DNA from: Escherichia coli
Lineage (GTDB): Bacteria > Pseudomonadota > Gammaproteobacteria > Enterobacterales > Enterobacteriaceae
Reading direction: 5' to 3' (one strand)
DNA length: 64,000 nucleotides
NCBI RefSeq assembly: GCF_051903065.1
Contig: NZ_CP178438.1
Below, piece after piece: positions 9,288 to 18,623 of the stretch. Below the pieces are notes generated by a model. That model was given only the letters and a program-made list of their open reading frames with translations, was not told the origin of the DNA and ran no database searches. Numbering within the stretch: position 1 is the first letter of the stretch; each line of letters starts with the position of its first letter. The position numbers were made by a program, and so were the translations under genes.

Positions 9288-10136
9288 TCATGCTTTGTCT
9301 GGTTGCCAGCCTTCCGTATACCAGATATGCAACAGCGCATAAGAACGCCAGGGCTTCCAGCGTTCAGCATAACGGCGGATTTGTGCCGGTGTCATTCCCG
9401 GAAATCGCTGTTTAATCAGATAATCATCCGGCAGGAAAACATCTTTCGCCTGCCAGCCACGCAAAGCGAAATAATTCGCCGTCCAGCGCCCGATACCCGG
9501 AAAAGTTTGCAGCGTTTTCATCGCCTGCTCCACATCGCCCGGAATTGTCATTGGTAAGCTGCCCTCCAGCGCCGCATTTGCCAGATGAATCAGTGCCTCT
9601 GCCCGTTTCAACGGCATGCCTAACGCTTTTAATGCCTGCGGGTCGGCTGCTGCCAGCCGCTGAGGCGTGGGGAAGCAGATATACTCCGGAAAATCATCCA
9701 GCCGTTCGCCATAAAGCTGTGCCACTCTGGCGGTCAATTTTGCCGCCATCGCCACGCTCACCAGTTGGCCTAAAATCGCCCGCACGCCCTGCTCAAAAGC
9801 ATCAACACTGCCGGGTAAACGCAATCCGGGCCGCGCCGCGCCTAACTTGCCCAACGCACCGTTAACAATCTGCGGGTTACATTGCAGATCAAGCAGGCGG
9901 CTCATTTTCGCCAGACACTCAGCGGCAACGGGTTCTAAATCTGCACTTAAATTTATGTGCAGAGTATGGCGGGCTATATCCGGAATAGCAGTCACCACGC
10001 CGCGATATTCGCCCACCGCCAGACTACGGGCATAATAATCGTCAGCGACCGTTTCCACACCACTCACTGCACGGGCGGCGAGAAATCCCAACATCCACGA
10101 CCAGTCATACGGCGGCTGCCAGTTCAGGGTATACAT
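9288..10136 (-). CDS. alkA: 3-methyladenine DNA glycosylase II, 282 aa
   Basis: 282-aa ORF recognised as AlkA (HhH-GPD fold, e.g. LQTFPGIGRWTANYFALRG). Confidence 0.9.
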   Translation of the reverse strand: MYTLNWQPPYDWSWMLGFLAARAVSGVETVADDYYARSLAVGEYRGVVTAIPDIARHTLHINLSADLEPVAAECLAKMSRLLDLQCNPQIVNGALGKLGAARPGLRLPGSVDAFEQGVRAILGQLVSVAMAAKLTARVAQLYGERLDDFPEYICFPTPQRLAAADPQALKALGMPLKRAEALIHLANAALEGSLPMTIPGDVEQAMKTLQTFPGIGRWTANYFALRGWQAKDVFLPDDYLIKQRFPGMTPAQIRRYAERWKPWRSYALLHIWYTEGWQPDKA

Positions 10137-10269
10137 CGCATCTCCTTATTCATCCGCTTTCAGCATAAACGTTATTCAGACGCTGCGCTTTGCTTTCATA
10201 TTCCGGTTGTCGCGACGGCAACATTTCGCTAAAGTCACGCCCCTTCTTCACCGGCATGGGGATTATTTC

Positions 10270-11622
10270 GTGTTTATTGGTTTTGATTACGGTACAGCAA
10301 ACTGTTCAGTGGCGGTCATGCGTGACGGTAAACCGCACTTGCTAAAAATGGAAAACGACAGCACGCTGCTGCCTTCAATGCTTTGCGCGCCAACGCGTGA
10401 AGCGGTAAGCGAATGGCTGTACCGCCATCATGATGTTCCGGCAGACGACGATGAAACGCAGGCGCTGTTACGTCGGGCGATTCGTTATAACCGTGAAGAA
10501 GATATCGATGTTACGGCGAAAAGCGTGCAGTTCGGTCTTTCCTCACTGGCACAGTACATTGATGATCCGGAAGAAGTGTGGTTTGTGAAATCACCAAAAT
10601 CGTTCCTCGGTGCCAGCGGCTTAAAACCGCAGCAGGTAGCGCTGTTTGAGGATCTGGTCTGCGCAATGATGTTGCACATTCGCCAGCAGGCGCAGGCACA
10701 GCTGCCAGAAACGATTACTCAGGCGGTGATCGGTCGCCCGATCAACTTCCAGGGGCTTGGCGGCGATGAAGCAAACACCCAGGCGCAGGGGATTCTGGAA
10801 CGCGCGGCGAAGCGTGCCGGGTTTAAGGATGTGGTATTCCAGTACGAGCCGGTCGCGGCTGGGCTGGATTACGAAGCCACCTTGCAGGAAGAAAAACGGG
10901 TGCTGGTGGTGGATATCGGCGGTGGTACGACTGACTGTTCATTGCTGCTGATGGGGCCGCAGTGGCGTTCGCGTCTCGATCGTGAAGCCAGCCTGCTGGG
11001 TCACAGTGGTTGCCGTATTGGCGGTAACGATCTGGATATCGCGCTGGCGTTTAAAAACCTGATGCCGTTACTGGGCATGGGTGGCGAAACCGAAAAAGGC
11101 ATCGCCCTGCCGATTCTGCCGTGGTGGAATGCGGTTGCCATCAACGACGTACCTGCGCAGAGTGATTTCTACAGTAGTGCCAACGGTCGTCTGCTTAACG
11201 ATCTGGTACGCGATGCCCGCGAACCGGAAAAAGTGGCCCTGTTACAGAAAGTCTGGCGTCAGCGTTTAAGCTATCGCCTGGTGCGTAGCGCAGAAGAGTG
11301 CAAAATTGCTCTTTCAAGCGTAGCGGAAACCCGCGCCTCACTGCCGTTTATCAGCGATGAACTGGCTACGCTGATTAGCCAGCAAGGGCTGGAAAGCGCC
11401 CTCAGCCAGCCACTGGCGCGGATTCTGGAACAGGTGCAACTGGCGCTGGATAACGCCCAGGAAAAACCGGACGTTATCTACCTGACCGGCGGAAGCGCCC
11501 GTTCTCCGCTGATTAAAAAAGCGCTGGCAGAACAGTTGCCGGGCATTCCGATTGCAGGCGGCGATGACTTTGGCTCCGTCACCGCCGGGCTGGCACGCTG
11601 GGCGGAAGTGGTGTTTCGTTAA
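10270..11622 (+). CDS. yegD: Hsp70-family (actin-like ATPase) protein YegD, ~450 aa
   Basis: Phosphate-1 motif IGFDYGTANCSVAV directly follows a GTG at 10270; there is no in-frame ATG just upstream of this conserved N-terminus, so the track's upstream extension to 10207 is unlikely to be the real start. Confidence 0.8.
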   Translation: MFIGFDYGTANCSVAVMRDGKPHLLKMENDSTLLPSMLCAPTREAVSEWLYRHHDVPADDDETQALLRRAIRYNREEDIDVTAKSVQFGLSSLAQYIDDPEEVWFVKSPKSFLGASGLKPQQVALFEDLVCAMMLHIRQQAQAQLPETITQAVIGRPINFQGLGGDEANTQAQGILERAAKRAGFKDVVFQYEPVAAGLDYEATLQEEKRVLVVDIGGGTTDCSLLLMGPQWRSRLDREASLLGHSGCRIGGNDLDIALAFKNLMPLLGMGGETEKGIALPILPWWNAVAINDVPAQSDFYSSANGRLLNDLVRDAREPEKVALLQKVWRQRLSYRLVRSAEECKIALSSVAETRASLPFISDELATLISQQGLESALSQPLARILEQVQLALDNAQEKPDVIYLTGGSARSPLIKKALAEQLPGIPIAGGDDFGSVTAGLARWAEVVFR

Positions 11623-11634
11623 TTGAAAAATGGC

Positions 11635-13584
11635 TCAGCAGCGGCTTAAATCTGCCTGCGCCTGAGCCAGTTTTTCTGCCGCCTGACGTAACGGTTCCAT
11701 CAACGGCATGGTCCGTGCTGGAGCATGAAGGCGGAATCGCTGCAACTCTGTCGCGCCGACAGTCAACGCCGATTCCAGCCGATGTCGTTTGGCGGCCATT
11801 TTCGCCATTACCGCTTGTCTTTCTGCAGGCGTTACCGCTTCGTTCGGCCTGAACACAAAACGGCGTTCACAGCTCGCTTTCCAGTCGATGACCGCCTGGG
11901 TCAGATGATCACCAAACCCTTTAACTTGCTTAACCCCACGACGGGTAACATCCGCGGCTGTTTCAATACCAAAAGACCGTAACGCCGCTTTACGCGCAGG
12001 GCCAACGCCGGGAATAGAGGCAGCATCAATAAAAAATCCCTCCAGAAACTTCTGCTTCTGCCGTTCCCTTGCAGTGTCGTGAAGTGCTGCCAGAGCACGT
12101 TTTTCTTCTTCCGGTAACCCGAGAATTTCGTCCTTCATTTTTTCGAGCATCGTCCGTTTGGCGATAAAACCTTCCAGCCCGCCCAACTGTTGGATCTGGT
12201 TGACTAAATGGTCATAGTCCATTTTCGCGCGATTAAATGCCTCACGGCGTTGCTGGATTTCTGCTTTATAAGCTTTGCTTGTCAGACTGCCAATAATCCA
12301 GATAGCCGCCAGCACAGGAACCAAAATAATATAACGCGGTTCTGCCTGAAGGCCGCAAAGCAACAGCGATAACGCTGACAGTGCGATCTCAATCAGAATG
12401 ATGTATTCGCGCCGTAACAGGCCTAAAGGAAGCGGCCTGCCAGTCGGTTGGAAATGATCGGGTAATGGCAATTGCAATGCTGGCGGTGCTACTGACGCCA
12501 TCACCATCGCCCAGACTTTCGCCAGCACAAAATCACCGCCGGTGGTAATGACCTCTTCACCGAGATCAATAAAATAGATAACGCCTTGATTATCCAGCGT
12601 ACACCACGGGCAGTCAGTCAAATGAGCGGGGTAAACATGCATTGCTGAAACGGTACATTTCTTTAACTGTTGGCGTAGAGAGTCCAGTGCCGCTACCCAC
12701 GCTTTAGCCGTCGGACGCCCCGTTGCCACGCCACTTTCCGTGAATGCCTGCTGAAACATGGCTTCAACATCGCCCGGTAACATCGACAGCGGAATAGATC
12801 GTGGCGGCGGTTTTAAACCACGCCGCTGATTATCTGACGCGTAGGCATAACGGAAATGGGCAATATCCGTCTCCAGCGCATTACCCGCATCAGAGATAAG
12901 CGGCACACCAGAATAAGGATGCCGCCCACCAAACAAGACGTGAAAAATCAGCAACGCAAGGCCAAAATTATCGTGATTTTCTGTGCGTTCAAAACCGACA
13001 AATGATGGCAAGGTTTGTAGCTCTGGCGGCGTAAAATGCGACACGCCAACTTCGCATAAATGCAACGTTCCATTGGCGTTAATCTGAAAGGAGTCGCTGT
13101 CGATCAACACCACTTTGCTGTCGCGACCTACCATAAAGCTGTTCTGGTTTACGTCACCCACGACGTGCCCGTGCTCGTGAACCGTAGCAAAAGATGAAGC
13201 AATATTACGCGCAACATAGAGTAGAAAATCCCACGCACAATGAGGGTAACTCTGGCGACGATGTGCCGGGCTATAGATCATATGAATCGGTTCTTTACCA
13301 GAAACTTTTGGCATCATAAAACCGATAACTTTTCCGCCTCGTCCACCGTGAAGCGTTGCCTGCGGCCAGGCGACATAATTCAGCAACTGTGCATCAGCTG
13401 TCGCAGCCATAAAGGCAAGTTTGTCCTGTTTTAAGGCGGGTGGCGGCGTGTGATAAATCTTAGCGACGCTATCGACAAACTCCTCGATATCATAAACCGC
13501 GCCTTCGCCACCTTTGCCCAGTTCACGGCCTGGCGTAACGCACTCACCAGTAGCAGTATATAAAGTGGGTTTCATGGTAACCAC
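11635..13584 (-). CDS. yegI: Membrane-anchored eukaryotic-like Ser/Thr protein kinase YegI with C-terminal tandem helix-hairpin-helix motifs, ~648 aa
   Basis: Gly-rich loop GKGGEGAVY and VAKIY lysine motif; two hydrophobic helices mid-protein; C-terminal IPGVGPARKAALRSFG and VKGFGDHLTQ HhH-like motifs. Alternative start 3 codons downstream (MKPTLY). Confidence 0.8.
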   Translation of the reverse strand: MVTMKPTLYTATGECVTPGRELGKGGEGAVYDIEEFVDSVAKIYHTPPPALKQDKLAFMAATADAQLLNYVAWPQATLHGGRGGKVIGFMMPKVSGKEPIHMIYSPAHRRQSYPHCAWDFLLYVARNIASSFATVHEHGHVVGDVNQNSFMVGRDSKVVLIDSDSFQINANGTLHLCEVGVSHFTPPELQTLPSFVGFERTENHDNFGLALLIFHVLFGGRHPYSGVPLISDAGNALETDIAHFRYAYASDNQRRGLKPPPRSIPLSMLPGDVEAMFQQAFTESGVATGRPTAKAWVAALDSLRQQLKKCTVSAMHVYPAHLTDCPWCTLDNQGVIYFIDLGEEVITTGGDFVLAKVWAMVMASVAPPALQLPLPDHFQPTGRPLPLGLLRREYIILIEIALSALSLLLCGLQAEPRYIILVPVLAAIWIIGSLTSKAYKAEIQQRREAFNRAKMDYDHLVNQIQQLGGLEGFIAKRTMLEKMKDEILGLPEEEKRALAALHDTARERQKQKFLEGFFIDAASIPGVGPARKAALRSFGIETAADVTRRGVKQVKGFGDHLTQAVIDWKASCERRFVFRPNEAVTPAERQAVMAKMAAKRHRLESALTVGATELQRFRLHAPARTMPLMEPLRQAAEKLAQAQADLSRC

Positions 13585-14333
13585 AGCGCCAGTGCCAACG
13601 TTTTATCATCATCGGTACGCTCGTTTACCGCCGGGCTGGACAAAAACTGCTTTAACAATTCAGGTAATAAATCGAGCTGTTCCTGCGTTGCTGCCGCCAG
13701 TCCATTGAAAAAAGGGGTAAAGAAAGGCACATGCGGAGAATTATCCAACATATTTAACGCCAGTCGCTGGATACCATCCGTAAATGCTGCAACTTTATGC
13801 ACACGCTCAGTGCTGGTGAAAGTTTCCAGTCTGGAAACAGCATCTTCATCGCTAATGAAATGCGTCATATTGGCATATTCACCCACCATCGGCGTGAGCG
13901 GCAGTTCCAGACCACGACCAAAATCCACCACTACACCGCCGTCGCCAATTTGCATAATCAATGTGCCGTTAGCCGATGAAATCAATCCCAGAAACGTGCA
14001 GGCAAAATCGCGAACTGCTAATGCTTTGGCTTCTGCCTCGGCAAAAAGTCGTTGACGAATGGTCAGTACCATATTTGTGGCGAGGACATCATTAAGCCCC
14101 AATTCACCGTCCTGTACTTTTTGCACCATAAACGCCATCGCTTCATTGACGGCGAGCTTCGCGCCTTCTCCTCCCTGCGAAACGCTACCTGCGCCATCAG
14201 CAAGGAACATCACCAGTAATGGCTGCTGGTCATTTAGCCAGGCAACCTGCATCTGGCAGGCATCCTGACAAGGTAAATCAGCGCTAATGTGCGACGTTCC
14301 AACAGCGGATGCATAAACCAGACGCCAGCTCAC
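13572..14333 (-). CDS. yegK: PP2C-family Ser/Thr phosphatase YegK, 253 aa
   Basis: 253-aa ORF, stop overlaps the yegI start by 13 nt; PP2C-like Asp-rich motifs ([15 protein letters not shown]). Confidence 0.8.
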
Positions 14334-14989
14334 ACTGACGTCCAGCCTTTTGGCGCTTCCAGCACAACTTCCGTTCCCGGCGTGGAGCGGGAAACCGAAC
14401 GCAGCGAACTGGATAACCAGCTAAACAGTTCACGGAATTGTAATCCCTGCAGTGGCAAAGGCTGACGAACGCTGATTTGTGCCAGAGTCTTCATATCCGC
14501 CCCCTGAACACCGATGGAAAAGAAGGCAAACTTCTTATCTTCTTCCCCCTGAAACACTTTGTTGGCGGCAGCCTGCCACTCATCGGTTGGTGCACCATCG
14601 GTGATTAGGAAAATCCACGGGCGATAATACGAAATACCATTTGCGCGGTACTCACGTTTCCTCTTTTCAACCATATCCAGGGCTTTGGTAATGGCGGCCC
14701 CCATAGGCGTATCCCCTTGGGCAAACAGGATGGGCGGGAAAAAGTTAGCGGCGCTGGTAAAGGGTTGTTCCACATGCACCGGGCCGAACGTCACAATGCC
14801 GAGTTCCACTCTTTTTAAAGCCAGCGGATCAGCAAGCAGTTCATCACGAAAGGTAACCAATCCGGCGTTAAGTTCATTAATGGGTCTACCGTTCATCGAA
14901 CCAGAAACATCCAGCAGCAGAATGCAGGGGCAACGTGGTTCCGGGTTACTGGCAGAATCGCTGGTGGCAAACATGATTTGTTCGCTCAT
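14330..14989 (-). CDS. yegL: von Willebrand factor A (vWA) domain protein YegL, 219 aa
   Basis: MIDAS motif DVSGS (DxSxS) near the N-terminus; 4-nt ATGA overlap with yegK indicates an operon yegL-yegK-yegI. Confidence 0.8.
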
Positions 14990-15170
14990 AAGAAATCATT
15001 TCTTAGAGAATTATTGAGGTCCGGTATCATACCGACTGCAATAATGAAATAAGAGCAAACGAAGAAACTTTCAGAATTAGTCCCGGCGGCGCAGAAAATT
15101 TTGCTATTCGCCTCGCAAGAACGGAGAGCCGTCGATTGACACTAAGGGCGGAGTGACATAATTTCAGGAG

Positions 15171-15310
15171 TGAGGGTTAGGGAAAGGTTTCCCCCTCCCC
15201 CTGGTGTTCTTAGTAAGCCTGGAAGCTAATCACTAAGAGTATCACCAGTATGATGACGTGCTTCATCATAACCCTTTCCTTATTTAAGGCCCCTTCCTCG
15301 GGAGGGGCTT
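15171..15310 (+). ncRNA. sibA: SibA antitoxin sRNA, antisense to ibsA (ends approximate)
   Basis: Sigma70 promoter TTGACA (15136-15141), 17-nt spacer, TAATTT (15159-15164). Transcript fully overlaps ibsA on the opposite strand and ends at a GC hairpin plus T-rich tract near 15285-15310. Confidence 0.6.
15210..15269 (-). CDS. ibsA: Type I toxin IbsA, 19-aa hydrophobic peptide MMKHVIILVILLVISFQAY
   Basis: Hand-translated minus-strand ORF; too short for the ORF track. Matches the Ibs toxin family. Confidence 0.75.
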   Translation of the reverse strand: MMKHVIILVILLVISFQAY

Positions 15311-15504
15311 TCCCGTTTCAGCATCCCGCTGAAATCGTCGGCTTACCTCCTTTCGCCATGCATGCAGTCTATCGCTGACTTGCGGATAAAATAGTTTCCA
15401 GTGTGATTATTGCGTAACGTCTCGCAAAGAATATTTGCTGGCAGGATCGCAGACTGCAAAGCCTGCAGATTGACAATCTGACCGTGAAGGCATACTTTCA
15501 GGAG

Positions 15505-15640
15505 TGAGGGTTGAGCGGGGTTTCCCCCGCCCTGGTAGTCTTAGTAAGCTGGCCAGCTAATGACTAAGAGCACCACGATGATGAGTAGCTTCATCATGAC
15601 CCTTTTCTTATTAAAGGATGACAAAATAATACAAATCACT
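15505..15640 (+). ncRNA. sibB: SibB antitoxin sRNA, antisense to ibsB (ends approximate)
   Basis: Second copy of the Sib repeat. Promoter TTGACA (15470-15475), 17-nt spacer, TACTTT (15493-15498). Overlaps ibsB. Confidence 0.55.
15541..15597 (-). CDS. ibsB: Type I toxin IbsB, 18-aa hydrophobic peptide MMKLLIIVVLLVISWPAY
   Basis: Hand-translated minus-strand ORF in the second Sib/Ibs repeat unit. Confidence 0.75.
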   Translation of the reverse strand: MMKLLIIVVLLVISWPAY

Positions 15641-15961: not shown

Positions 15962-16324
15962 ATGTTAAAGCTATTTGCAAAGTACACCTCGATTGGTGTG
16001 CTGAACACACTTATACACTGGGTGGTTTTTGGTGTATGTATCTATGCCGCGCATACCAATCAGGCTCTGGCAAACTTCTCAGGTTTCGTTGTGGCTGTGA
16101 GCTTTAGCTTCTTCGCGAATGCAAAATTCACATTCAAAGCATCGACTACAACGATGCGCTACATGTTATATGTCGGGTTCATGGGAACACTGAGTGCTAC
16201 TGTTGGATGGGCTGCTGATAAGTGCTCGCTTCCTCCAATTATCACTCTTATCACCTTCTCCGCCATCAGCCTGGTGTGCGGTTTCGTCTATTCAAAGTTC
16301 ATTGTCTTTAGGGATGCGAAATGA
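15962..16324 (+). CDS. gtrA: GtrA-family bactoprenol-glucose flippase, 120 aa
   Basis: 120-aa four-helix membrane protein; near-identical to phage P22/SfV-type GtrA as I recall it ([20 protein letters not shown]...). Confidence 0.9.
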
Positions 16325-17241
16325 AAATATCTCTGATTGTTCCTGTCTTCAATGAAGAAGATGCGATACCAATTTTCTATAAAACGGTACGTGAATTCGA
16401 AGAGTTGAAGCCTTATGACGTCGAAATTGTATTCATAAATGACGGAAGCAAAGACGCCACGGAATCAATTATTAACGTTCTGGCTGTTTCAGATCCGCTA
16501 GTTGTTCCGCTGTCATTTACACGAAACTTTGGTAAAGAACCAGCATTGTTTGCAGGGTTAGACCATGCAACGGGCGATGCTGTTATTCCTATTGATGTTG
16601 ACCTGCAAGACCCGATTGAGGTTATTCCTCATCTGATTGAAAAGTGGCAGGCAGGTGCCGATATGGTGCTGGCAAAACGTTCAGATCGTTCAACTGATGG
16701 AAGATTAAAACGGAAAACCGCTGAGTGGTTCTATAAGCTTCACAATAAAATAAGCAATCCAAAGATTGAAGAGAATGTCGGCGATTTCCGCCTGATGTCT
16801 CGAGAGGTGGTAGAAAATATCAAACTACTGCCAGAGCGTAACCTGTTTATGAAAGGCGTTTTATCTTGGGTTGGCGGTAAGACGGATGTTGTTGAATACA
16901 TCCGTGCTGAACGCGTTGCCGGAAGCACAAAATTCAATGGCTGGAAGCTATGGAACCTGGCGCTTGAGGGAATTACAAGTTTCTCGACCTTCCCCTTACG
17001 CGTGTGGACTTACATCGGCCTACTTGTTGCGGGACTCTCGTTCCTTTACGGGGTGTGGATGATTTTCGACACATTGGTGTTCGGTAATGCTGTCCGCGGA
17101 TATCCTTCTATTCTTGTATCTATTCTCTTTTTAGGTGGCATTCAGTTAATTGGTATTGGGGTGCTGGGAGAATACATCGGCAGAATTTACGTAGAAGTTA
17201 AAAATCGTCCTAGATATGTACTTAAAAAAATAAAAGGTTAG
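16321..17241 (+). CDS. gtrB: GtrB bactoprenol glucosyltransferase (GT2 family), 306 aa
   Basis: GT2 motifs (DGSKDAT, DVDLQD) and C-terminal TM helices; 4-nt overlap with gtrA. Confidence 0.9.
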
Positions 17242-17246
17242 AGAAT

Positions 17247-18623
17247 ATGCGCATTTCAAAAAATGAAAAATACCTTTCATTGATTATGATAGCATTTTAC
17301 TTGCCATTTTTATTATCTGATTTACCTTTTAGGGACGATCTAAGCAGGACTTATTGGGGTTTTGTTGGGTTGTCTCAATTAGGTAGACCATTGGCAGACA
17401 TTGTTTATAGTTTGGTTGGATTTGGCTATGAGGGTGTTAACCTCAGCCCTATGCCTAAAATTATAGCGCTATTAATAATATTATCGTCTGCGATATTTTC
17501 ATACAGAACGCTATTCAACTCAATAGGAGCAACCGGGTTACTCTCTTTATCTATTTTCTTTGCAAATCCATTTATTATTCAAAATTTTGCATATCAGTAC
17601 GACTGTTTTCCAATGGCTTTATCTATTTTATTGGCGACATTATCTGTATTATATAGACCAAGATCAAGCTATTTTTATTTTCTTAGCGCATCATTTTTAT
17701 TAACTAGCGCAATATCACTTTATCAAGCATCTATATTTATTGCGGCATCTTTATATTTATGTAAGATCACTATTTATTTCGTTAACGATAGAAATCGCAG
17801 AGATGTTTTTATAGAATGCATGCTTACTCTTTTGTCTTCTTTTTTCTCTATTGCATGTTACATGGTGATTTTACTTTTTGTAGAAAATGGCGTGTCAAAA
17901 CGAGCTAGCATTACAGGGCCAAGTGGCGTTATTAGCAATATCGAGTTCCTTTTGGATAGGTTAAATAGCCTTTACCACTCGGTTTATATTTTTTTTATTA
18001 TTTTGTCATTAGTATTAATATTCTCTCTCTTGAGGATTTTTATCCTAAAAAGATATATCAATTTATGCGTGATATTACTAATACTTGTTGCGCTGCTAGT
18101 CTCTTCCCTACTCCCATCTGTCATCCTTAAGGAAGGGTTCGCCGGACCAAGAGTTTTAATGTCTATTTGTTCGGTATTTATATTTATATCTATCATTGCA
18201 ACCGGAAAAGAAAAATACGTATACGCCATGGTGTTATCTGTTTTAATGATGCATTCCATGTCTATTTCATACGCATTTTCAGGTGACATTAAGGCACAAT
18301 ACGATAGATACTCGATGATATCATCTCTTGTTTATAAAGATATTGATAATTACGTGTCGTCAAATACAGCAAAAATATACATTTCTTGCAAATCAACCCC
18401 ATCACAAAGAGAGTACGTTTTCTATAAATTCAACAATCACATAGCATGGCTCAACCCAGAAGAGGCTTGGGCTATCAGGTTTTTCATAAGAAATAATGGC
18501 GAGAGCAGGGTGGTGCACTCATGGGATGAATGCTTTGATATAAATGGAGGTAAGATCGTTAAAGAAAATGCATTTTATAAAATGGTTGAAAATAAAAATT
18601 CTTACTATTTCATAATGAAATAA
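17247..18623 (+). CDS. gtrC: GtrC-type serotype-specific O-antigen glucosyltransferase (polytopic membrane protein), 458 aa
   Basis: Third gene of a gtr operon; highly hydrophobic and AT-rich with strong codon bias relative to its neighbours, typical of horizontally acquired gtrC-type genes. Target specificity cannot be called from sequence. Confidence 0.7.
   Translation: MRISKNEKYLSLIMIAFYLPFLLSDLPFRDDLSRTYWGFVGLSQLGRPLADIVYSLVGFGYEGVNLSPMPKIIALLIILSSAIFSYRTLFNSIGATGLLSLSIFFANPFIIQNFAYQYDCFPMALSILLATLSVLYRPRSSYFYFLSASFLLTSAISLYQASIFIAASLYLCKITIYFVNDRNRRDVFIECMLTLLSSFFSIACYMVILLFVENGVSKRASITGPSGVISNIEFLLDRLNSLYHSVYIFFIILSLVLIFSLLRIFILKRYINLCVILLILVALLVSSLLPSVILKEGFAGPRVLMSICSVFIFISIIATGKEKYVYAMVLSVLMMHSMSISYAFSGDIKAQYDRYSMISSLVYKDIDNYVSSNTAKIYISCKSTPSQREYVFYKFNNHIAWLNPEEAWAIRFFIRNNGESRVVHSWDECFDINGGKIVKENAFYKMVENKNSYYFIMK

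Follow-up and report, generated by a model that had tools for sequence, protein, structure and literature searches.

What is the C-terminal tail of YegI, a membrane-anchored protein kinase of Escherichia coli, for? Together with the phosphatase PphC (YegK) and the vWA protein YegL, YegI makes up a Ser/Thr phospho-signalling module of the eukaryote-like kind, of which this species has few, and its tail was analyzed here in a window of 64,000 nucleotides from the E. coli assembly GCF_051903065.1 (contig NZ_CP178438.1; coordinates of E. coli features refer to this window). The yegI gene lies on the minus strand at 11635..13575 (RefSeq ATG start at 13575, 646 aa), whereas the longest open reading frame (ORF), 11635..13584 on the same strand, begins with a GTG at 13584 and encodes 649 aa. 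Residues are numbered here along the 649-aa ORF; subtracting three gives the published positions. The tail, encoded in the 3' third of the ORF, was found to carry a genuine tandem helix-hairpin-helix domain, (HhH)2, located in the cytoplasm beside the inner membrane; whether this domain contacts nucleic acid is the question weighed below.

The tandem-HhH domain is confirmed by motif, conservation and predicted fold evidence. A scan for the pattern h-x-G-h-G detected only two sites in the whole of YegI, at residues 524-528 and 554-558, 30 residues apart, and these open the two motifs that a sequence-only reading of this DNA had picked out in the tail: motif 1, IPGVGPARKAALRSFGIETAADV (aa 524-546; 11947..12015, minus strand), and motif 2, VKGFGDHLTQAVIDW (aa 554-568; 11881..11925, minus strand). 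Both belong to a domain spanning aa 516-585 (11830..12039, minus strand), which also holds the conserved residues W568, R569 and F576-x-F578. Among 48 aligned full-length homologues (identities of 32-63%), G528, A543, W568 and F576 are invariant, G539, G556, F557, G558, R569 and E573 are conserved in at least 90%, and G526 in 81%; position 531 is basic in 94%, G556 and G558 each reach 98%, and position 569 is R or K in 98%. Their consensus is I-x-G-I-G-P-x-R-K-A-x-L-x-S-F-G-I-E-T-A-A-D-V ... V-P-G-F-G-x-x-L-T-x-x-L-x-x-W-R, and 88% of the homologues have a positive net charge in the domain (mean +2.9).

Profile searches point in the same direction. HHH_5 is the sole Pfam match of E. coli YegI (aa 518-553, E 0.0016-0.008), and among the 48 homologue tails this family is matched by 28 at E<=0.1 and by four at E<=0.001, with a best value of 2e-5. 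The tail (aa 441-649), searched against 1.84 billion representative proteins, retrieved 2075 clusters at E<=1e-3 that aligned end to end. When the tail profile was compared with the PDB sequences (hmmsearch), the best match, marginal at E 0.0066, was the (HhH)2 N-terminal extension of the haloarchaeal ribosomal protein L32e, with an alignment that spans both YegI hairpins, followed by the HhH regions of DinB and Rev1; hhalign of the YegI domain profile with the L32e segment gave a probability of 97.4%. These matches to HhH families are mutually consistent, each being marginal alone. With the tail as a single query sequence, phmmer detected no significant match in the PDB; among the relevant ones the N-terminal domain of Rad51 came closest, at E 0.27. 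The same Rad51 domain is the top Foldseek match to the YegI domain (probability 0.99), and further structural neighbours are DisA, SAM domains, the AR domains of NusA, the RAD51C N-terminal domain and XPF/FAAP24. L32e thus provides the closest match at the sequence level and Rad51 at the level of the fold; both come from unrelated protein contexts, and the likeness is limited to the domain of about 45-70 residues.

Full-length YegI was modelled with AlphaFold 2 (AF2) using the 48-sequence alignment, and the model is confident (predicted local distance difference test score, pLDDT, 93.3; predicted template modelling score, pTM, 0.78). Its HhH region consists of a short helix, a hairpin and helix 529-537, a linker, and then helix 548-552, the second hairpin and helix 559-574; the conserved F-x-F forms a strand-like segment after the second HhH and before the terminal helix. 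Structure prediction, proposed in the sequence-only reading as a way to detect a different fold, thus returned (HhH)2, a compact helical fold that resembles solved HhH2 domains, with its two motifs joined by a connector helix.

The model also places this domain within the whole chain. A divergent Hanks-type Ser/Thr kinase domain with the bilobal fold occupies aa ~1-305 (12670..13575, minus strand). It is too divergent for Pfam, which registers no kinase in E. coli YegI; kinase-profile matches to the protein are weak, NCBIfam giving only weak kinase-domain matches to lanthionine synthetases, and a Sphingomonas homologue does match Pfam Pkinase. The kinase domain is followed, ahead of the membrane anchor, by a zinc-ribbon-like element (aa 306-335, C310-x5-H316-x8-C325-x2-C328; 12580..12669, minus strand), for which Pfam gives no match; its four Cys/His residues are invariant in the 48 homologues and are surrounded in the model by strands 307-309 and 317-319, and the cluster is probably a zinc ribbon of the type described for TerY-P kinases. 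Two transmembrane (TM) helices follow, at aa 394-412 and 418-434 with a periplasmic loop of 5 residues (12283..12405, minus strand; hydropathy, AF2 and PhoA-LacZ fusions), the first of them running from 392 to 412 in the AF2 model. The second continues as a single helix to aa 468 and leads, with helices 470-488, 490-503 and 505-514, into a helical stalk (aa 436-515; 12040..12279, minus strand; pLDDT >90) that is part of the conserved C-terminal module. The kinase-like N-terminal domain and the two hydrophobic helices named in the sequence-only reading are hence both borne out. Beyond the (HhH)2 domain the protein ends in a long helix (aa 586-649; 11638..11829, minus strand), modelled over residues 586-648 with a length of 63 residues and closing with a conserved LAQAxAD (aa 639-645; 11650-11670, minus strand; Q641 90%, A642 92%, D645 90%), which may be a docking element. 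Near it lie S605 and S647, in vitro autophosphorylation sites conserved in only 17% and 27% of the homologues; these sites (S602 and S644 in the paper) show that the YegI tail is phosphorylated in vitro (10.1101/819920).

The sidedness of the tail can be read from published data: PhoA-LacZα fusions at paper positions 340, 390, 439 and 646 were LacZ-positive and hence cytoplasmic, and those at 414 and 432 were PhoA-positive (10.1101/819920). Positions 439 and 646 answer the sequence-only reading's call for topology mapping in favour of a cytoplasmic tail, and the kinase domain and the (HhH)2 tail of YegI both face the cytoplasm. Moreover, in all eight homologues that combine kinase and module with a C-terminal extension, a third TM helix separates the module from the added part; since the added parts appear extracytoplasmic, this implies a cytoplasmic module independently of the fusion data. 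Fold and topology taken together are held with high confidence.

The HhH tail of YegI is already known at the level of annotation. YegI is the E. coli member of COG4248 (protein kinase plus HhH DNA-binding domains), from which it does not differ and whose name is cited in PMC3861447; orthologues are named 'helix-hairpin-helix domain-containing protein' at NCBI, with identical wording in UniProt, and 'DNA-binding helix-hairpin-helix protein with protein kinase domain' at JGI, a name given to orthologues with 57-63% identity; the JGI-named members align over 96-100% of YegI with 56-60% identity (E ~1e-240). In complete E. coli genomes, the 100% identical megablast matches are annotated "yegI: protein kinase YegI". 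The COG4248, NCBI and JGI names are computational annotation, in which DNA binding is predicted. The view of the sequence-only reading that a membrane kinase with an HhH tail is an unusual combination is not supported, the family being already named for it in the databases. By contrast, the papers characterizing YegI never mention the HhH domain and describe stimulus and substrates as unknown (10.1101/819920; 10.1101/303594), and the authors who characterized kinase and topology state that YegI has no extracytoplasmic sensor, leaving the tail undiscussed (10.1101/819920). The domain call itself is thus old annotation and its value is that of a testable lead: a cytoplasmic (HhH)2 domain offers the cheap hypothesis that nucleic acid is an activating ligand or a targeting cue, and it connects an operon of the E. 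coli core genome with defence systems of the TerY-P class. Added here are the intact triad in other genomes, the defence genes near it, its occurrence on plasmids and a variant with a Top1-type zinc ribbon.

The triad is compact in E. coli. Upstream of yegI and on the same minus strand lie pphC (yegK; 13572..14333), encoding the PP2C phosphatase that removes YegI phosphorylation (10.1101/303594), and yegL (14330..14989), encoding the vWA protein with an intact metal ion-dependent adhesion site (MIDAS) DxSxS (D27-V-S-G-S31). In the order yegL-pphC-yegI the stops and starts overlap, by 4 nt (13572-13575) in the case of pphC and yegI. Outside E. coli, 12 loci with flanks were examined, nine of them chromosomal or metagenomic (L001, L002, L005, L006, L008, L009, L015, L016 and L017) and three on plasmids (L011, L012 and L013), and the order vWA, PP2C, kinase/HhH was intact in 12 of 12; in total, 57 plasmid records from outside E. 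coli carry the module. Restriction or defence genes lie within 9 kb in 8 of the 12 loci, a tally that is to be read as qualitative because it has no background rate. These neighbours comprise BrxR, JetB, a ScoMcrA-like protein, an SLFN-type helicase and NYN at L001; AbiH, a KAP NTPase and Tn7-like genes at L002; Shedu SduA_C, HIT-PLD-helicase and HNH at L005; type I restriction-modification (RM) and Mrr at L008; GmrSD, type I RM and SymE at L009; DUF262 with an Hxs cluster alongside at L013; E1/E2/JAB genes, a dCTP-deaminase family gene and a recombinase at L016; and JetD, McrA, GmrSD and PIN-TPR-GreABC at L017.

The module also occurs in variant architectures. On the Sphingomonas panacis plasmid NZ_CP014169.1 (L011, 5690-7849) a YegI homologue carries a C-terminal Zn_ribbon_Top1 domain (E 1.2e-8), a topoisomerase-type C4 zinc finger that directly follows the HhH module with no TM helix between them, and further relatives in the AlphaFold database are named for a Top1 zinc finger (I4KB67, A0A072TPJ3). 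Other variants with kinase and module continue, after the third TM helix, into TPR repeats or into SH3-like or peptidoglycan-binding-like regions, the latter assigned by sequence; kinase-less forms consist of an N-terminal Cys-rich region, the module and TM helices, and one of them, P0191, ends in TonB_C. Homologues with variant architectures are P0154, P0172, P0178, P0180, P0191, P0196, P0216, P0223, P0246, P0247, P0258 and P0267 as well as L005 8001-10700. In every architecture seen, the module is cytoplasmic and beside the membrane.

The closest known counterpart of yegLKI is the TerY-P triad, reportedly described by Anantharaman, Iyer and Aravind in 2012. It shares with yegLKI a vWA protein (MIDAS), a PP2C phosphatase and a Ser/Thr kinase in the same order, and both kinases combine a zinc ribbon, probable in YegI, with a putative nucleic-acid-binding C-terminal domain; both kinds of locus are frequently associated with restriction and defence loci. 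TerY-P kinases have been described with a C-terminal zinc ribbon, those linked to CoCoNuT systems having the zinc ribbon only (PMC11090510), and in the anti-phage TerY-P system of Gao et al. 2020 the kinase is reported to end in an OB fold, which is taken to suggest oligonucleotide binding (PMC11090510; PMC7699616). YegI differs from these kinases by its two-TM anchor, its helical stalk and an (HhH)2 domain instead of the OB fold or zinc-ribbon end. Two further systems offer partial parallels. DisA serves as an analogy only: it is a soluble octameric diadenylate cyclase with neither kinase, membrane anchor, vWA nor PP2C partners. ComEA-type receptors are membrane-anchored and bind DNA non-specifically at the membrane by means of (HhH)2; however, ComEA carries its domain outside the cytoplasm, for the uptake of DNA, whereas that of YegI is cytoplasmic and joined to a kinase.

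We propose as the best reading that yegLKI is a TerY-P-like phospho-switch in which the tail of YegI would engage nucleic acid beside the inner membrane, a reading whose chances we see as evenly balanced. It draws on the near-invariant hairpin glycines, the conserved basic residues, the OB-fold and zinc-ribbon tails at the same position in other TerY-P kinases, the Top1 zinc-ribbon variant, the defence-gene neighbours and the occurrence on plasmids. YegI would act as a chain of kinase, four-residue zinc ribbon, two-helix anchor, stalk, (HhH)2 and long terminal helix with both ends in the cytoplasm. The (HhH)2 domain would contact the sugar-phosphate backbone of DNA, or of structured RNA, without sequence specificity, through the two Gly-h-Gly hairpins and the basic residues R531, K532, R569, R574 and R575. 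Held at the inner membrane by its anchor, YegI would encounter nucleic acid in the immediate vicinity, such as incoming phage or plasmid DNA or the membrane-proximal nucleoid. YegI is an active kinase with a preference for Mn2+ and second-order autophosphorylation (10.1101/819920), kinetics that fit activation by clustering; since activation is second-order, several YegI molecules on one nucleic acid might bring their kinase domains together and so promote trans-autophosphorylation. Phosphorylation by YegI of YegL, of cellular targets or of both could follow, with PphC returning the switch to its starting state. Equally, the domain could serve for targeting and bring the kinase to substrates that are themselves bound to DNA. 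When overproduced, both YegI and YegL are among the proteins listed as raising endogenous DNA damage in E. coli (10.1101/354589), a listing that fits DNA contact and is non-specific. A stronger version, in which yegLKI is a membrane-anchored innate-immunity sensor whose tail detects foreign DNA crossing or lying against the inner membrane and clusters the kinase, so that a phospho-switch under vWA and PP2C control restricts the establishment of phage or plasmid, appears rather improbable to us, and an anti-phage or defence role in E. coli itself is only slightly less doubtful. If true, the stronger version would make yegLKI a separate branch of TerY-P systems, marked by its HhH tail and overlooked by present defence-finder models.

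Several observations weigh against the proposed switch. The HHH_5 match to E. coli YegI is weak and limited to the first 36 of the 57 model positions. The PADLOC TerY model reached YegL with E 0.015 and 12.8 bits, the PADLOC TerY-P models gave no match on YegK, and YegI showed only weak matches to the PD-T4-6 and MkoA kinases; with default settings and at E<=10 PADLOC yielded no usable TerY-P assignment. Because these models miss YegK and YegI and barely reach YegL, yegLKI resembles TerY-P in its architecture and is not counted here as part of the validated system. The E. coli cassette belongs to the core chromosome and is not an obvious defence island; very low expression and no known inducing condition are reported for it (PMC13232886; 10.1101/819920). 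Locus L006 has housekeeping neighbours only, the count of defence neighbours carries the limit given above, and a tblastn search of a phage collection detected no YegI homologue. All three proteins did match near-identical PHROGs families of unknown function; these matches are uninformative and probably stem from prophage calls that took in chromosomal sequence.

The most probable alternative concerns the ligand. NusA AR domains, the dimerizing HhH2 domains of XPF-ERCC1 and SAM domains act as protein-interaction modules, and the (HhH)2/SAM-like domain of YegI with its long flanking helices might likewise be an interaction or oligomerization module that dimerizes YegI or docks YegL or PphC, controlling the kinase without nucleic acid. 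SAM and protein-binding HhH2 domains (NusA AR, RAD51C, XPF/FAAP24) are equally good structural neighbours, AF2 places long helices on both sides of the domain, autophosphorylation is second-order, LAQAxAD resembles a docking element and the tail itself is phosphorylated in vitro. Nevertheless, Gly-h-Gly is near-invariant in both hairpins and the basic residues that open the second helices are conserved, the module is recurrently fused to the DNA-binding Top1 zinc ribbon, and the sequence-level matches are HhH profiles; we regard this alternative as possible, with perhaps a minority share of the likelihood, and note that protein-interaction and nucleic-acid roles of the domain are compatible and not mutually exclusive.

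Somewhat less probable is a second alternative, which accepts DNA binding by the tail and changes its purpose: yegLKI would be a housekeeping device for stress or DNA damage and not for defence, a DisA-like reporter of DNA state or a nucleoid tether that phosphorylates chromosomal proteins. The operon is core in E. coli, yegI being present in 5401 of 5426 complete genomes at >=80% coverage (megablast), it lies near alkA and outside any mobile island, it is nearly silent, and DisA is among the structural neighbours; the DNA damage raised by overproduced YegI or YegL and the L006 locus with its housekeeping genes and lexA would also be accounted for. However, most of the cassettes inspected are found on plasmids or with restriction or defence genes nearby, and different genes flank them from locus to locus, a pattern typical of mobile defence cassettes; the related TerY-P triad is reported to be anti-phage (PMC11090510; PMC7699616). 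Finally, a chance origin of the two motifs, as glycine-rich stretches of a helical region without an HhH domain, is very improbable: despite the weak Pfam match of the E. coli protein alone (E 0.008) and the single-sequence PDB search without a significant match, it is excluded by conservation and fold, that is, by hairpins almost invariant in 48 divergent homologues, a family-level profile that matches HhH and a confident AF2 model with HhH2/SAM-like neighbours.

Strain background bears on how the operon may be studied. In K-12, yegJ is inserted between pphC and yegI in the opposite orientation, a K-12-specific arrangement (PMC13232886), whereas the strain analyzed here lacks yegJ. Because yegJ interrupts pphC-yegI there, K-12 may be a poor background for phenotyping the yegLKI operon.

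In four related loci outside E. coli, a basic ORF of about 70 aa (…MISARTSPARFVRH…GWGWLTNPKRAAYNRVYSRTT…) is conserved just upstream of the vWA gene, and in three of the four it is followed by a staphylococcal-nuclease-like (SNase-like) gene (L001 5719-6474, L015 6700-7501, L017 6691-7473 and L008 7075-7284). The SNase-like protein of L017, the one translated, has an N-terminal hydrophobic, signal-peptide-like segment, and the product of this gene may be an accessory nuclease. Both the basic ORF and the SNase-like gene are absent from the E. coli window.

On its other side, yegI converges with yegD (10207-11622, plus strand; Hsp70-like) across a gap of 12 nt. Hsp70-like proteins belong to some CoCoNuT defence systems; yegD was rejected as a functional partner of the triad, which it adjoins in 0 of the 12 other loci, and its adjacency to yegI may be coincidental or Escherichia-specific. 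Two genes from yegI lies alkA (9288-10136, minus strand), encoding a DNA glycosylase of the HhH-GPD type with the motif FPGIGRWTANYF; no link between the AlkA HhH motif and the YegI domain was seen. An antisense ORF within yegI (11725-11982, plus strand, 85 aa) was taken as spurious, and a promoter and terminator scan of the region gave nothing beyond the shuffled expectation. Directly upstream of yegL, two Sib antitoxin RNAs (Rfam RF00113) are encoded on the plus strand at 15136-15284 and 15470-15612 with 149 and 133 bits, respectively; Sib RNAs are paired with ibs type I toxin genes. Adjoining these ibs/sib loci is a gtr-like cluster (~15962-18623 and beyond, plus strand) of genes for a bactoprenol glucosyl transferase, a GT2 glycosyltransferase and a glucosyltransferase, which in the identical RefSeq strain precedes a pseudogene for a phage head-binding protein and an IS481 transposase; this region looks like a prophage remnant.

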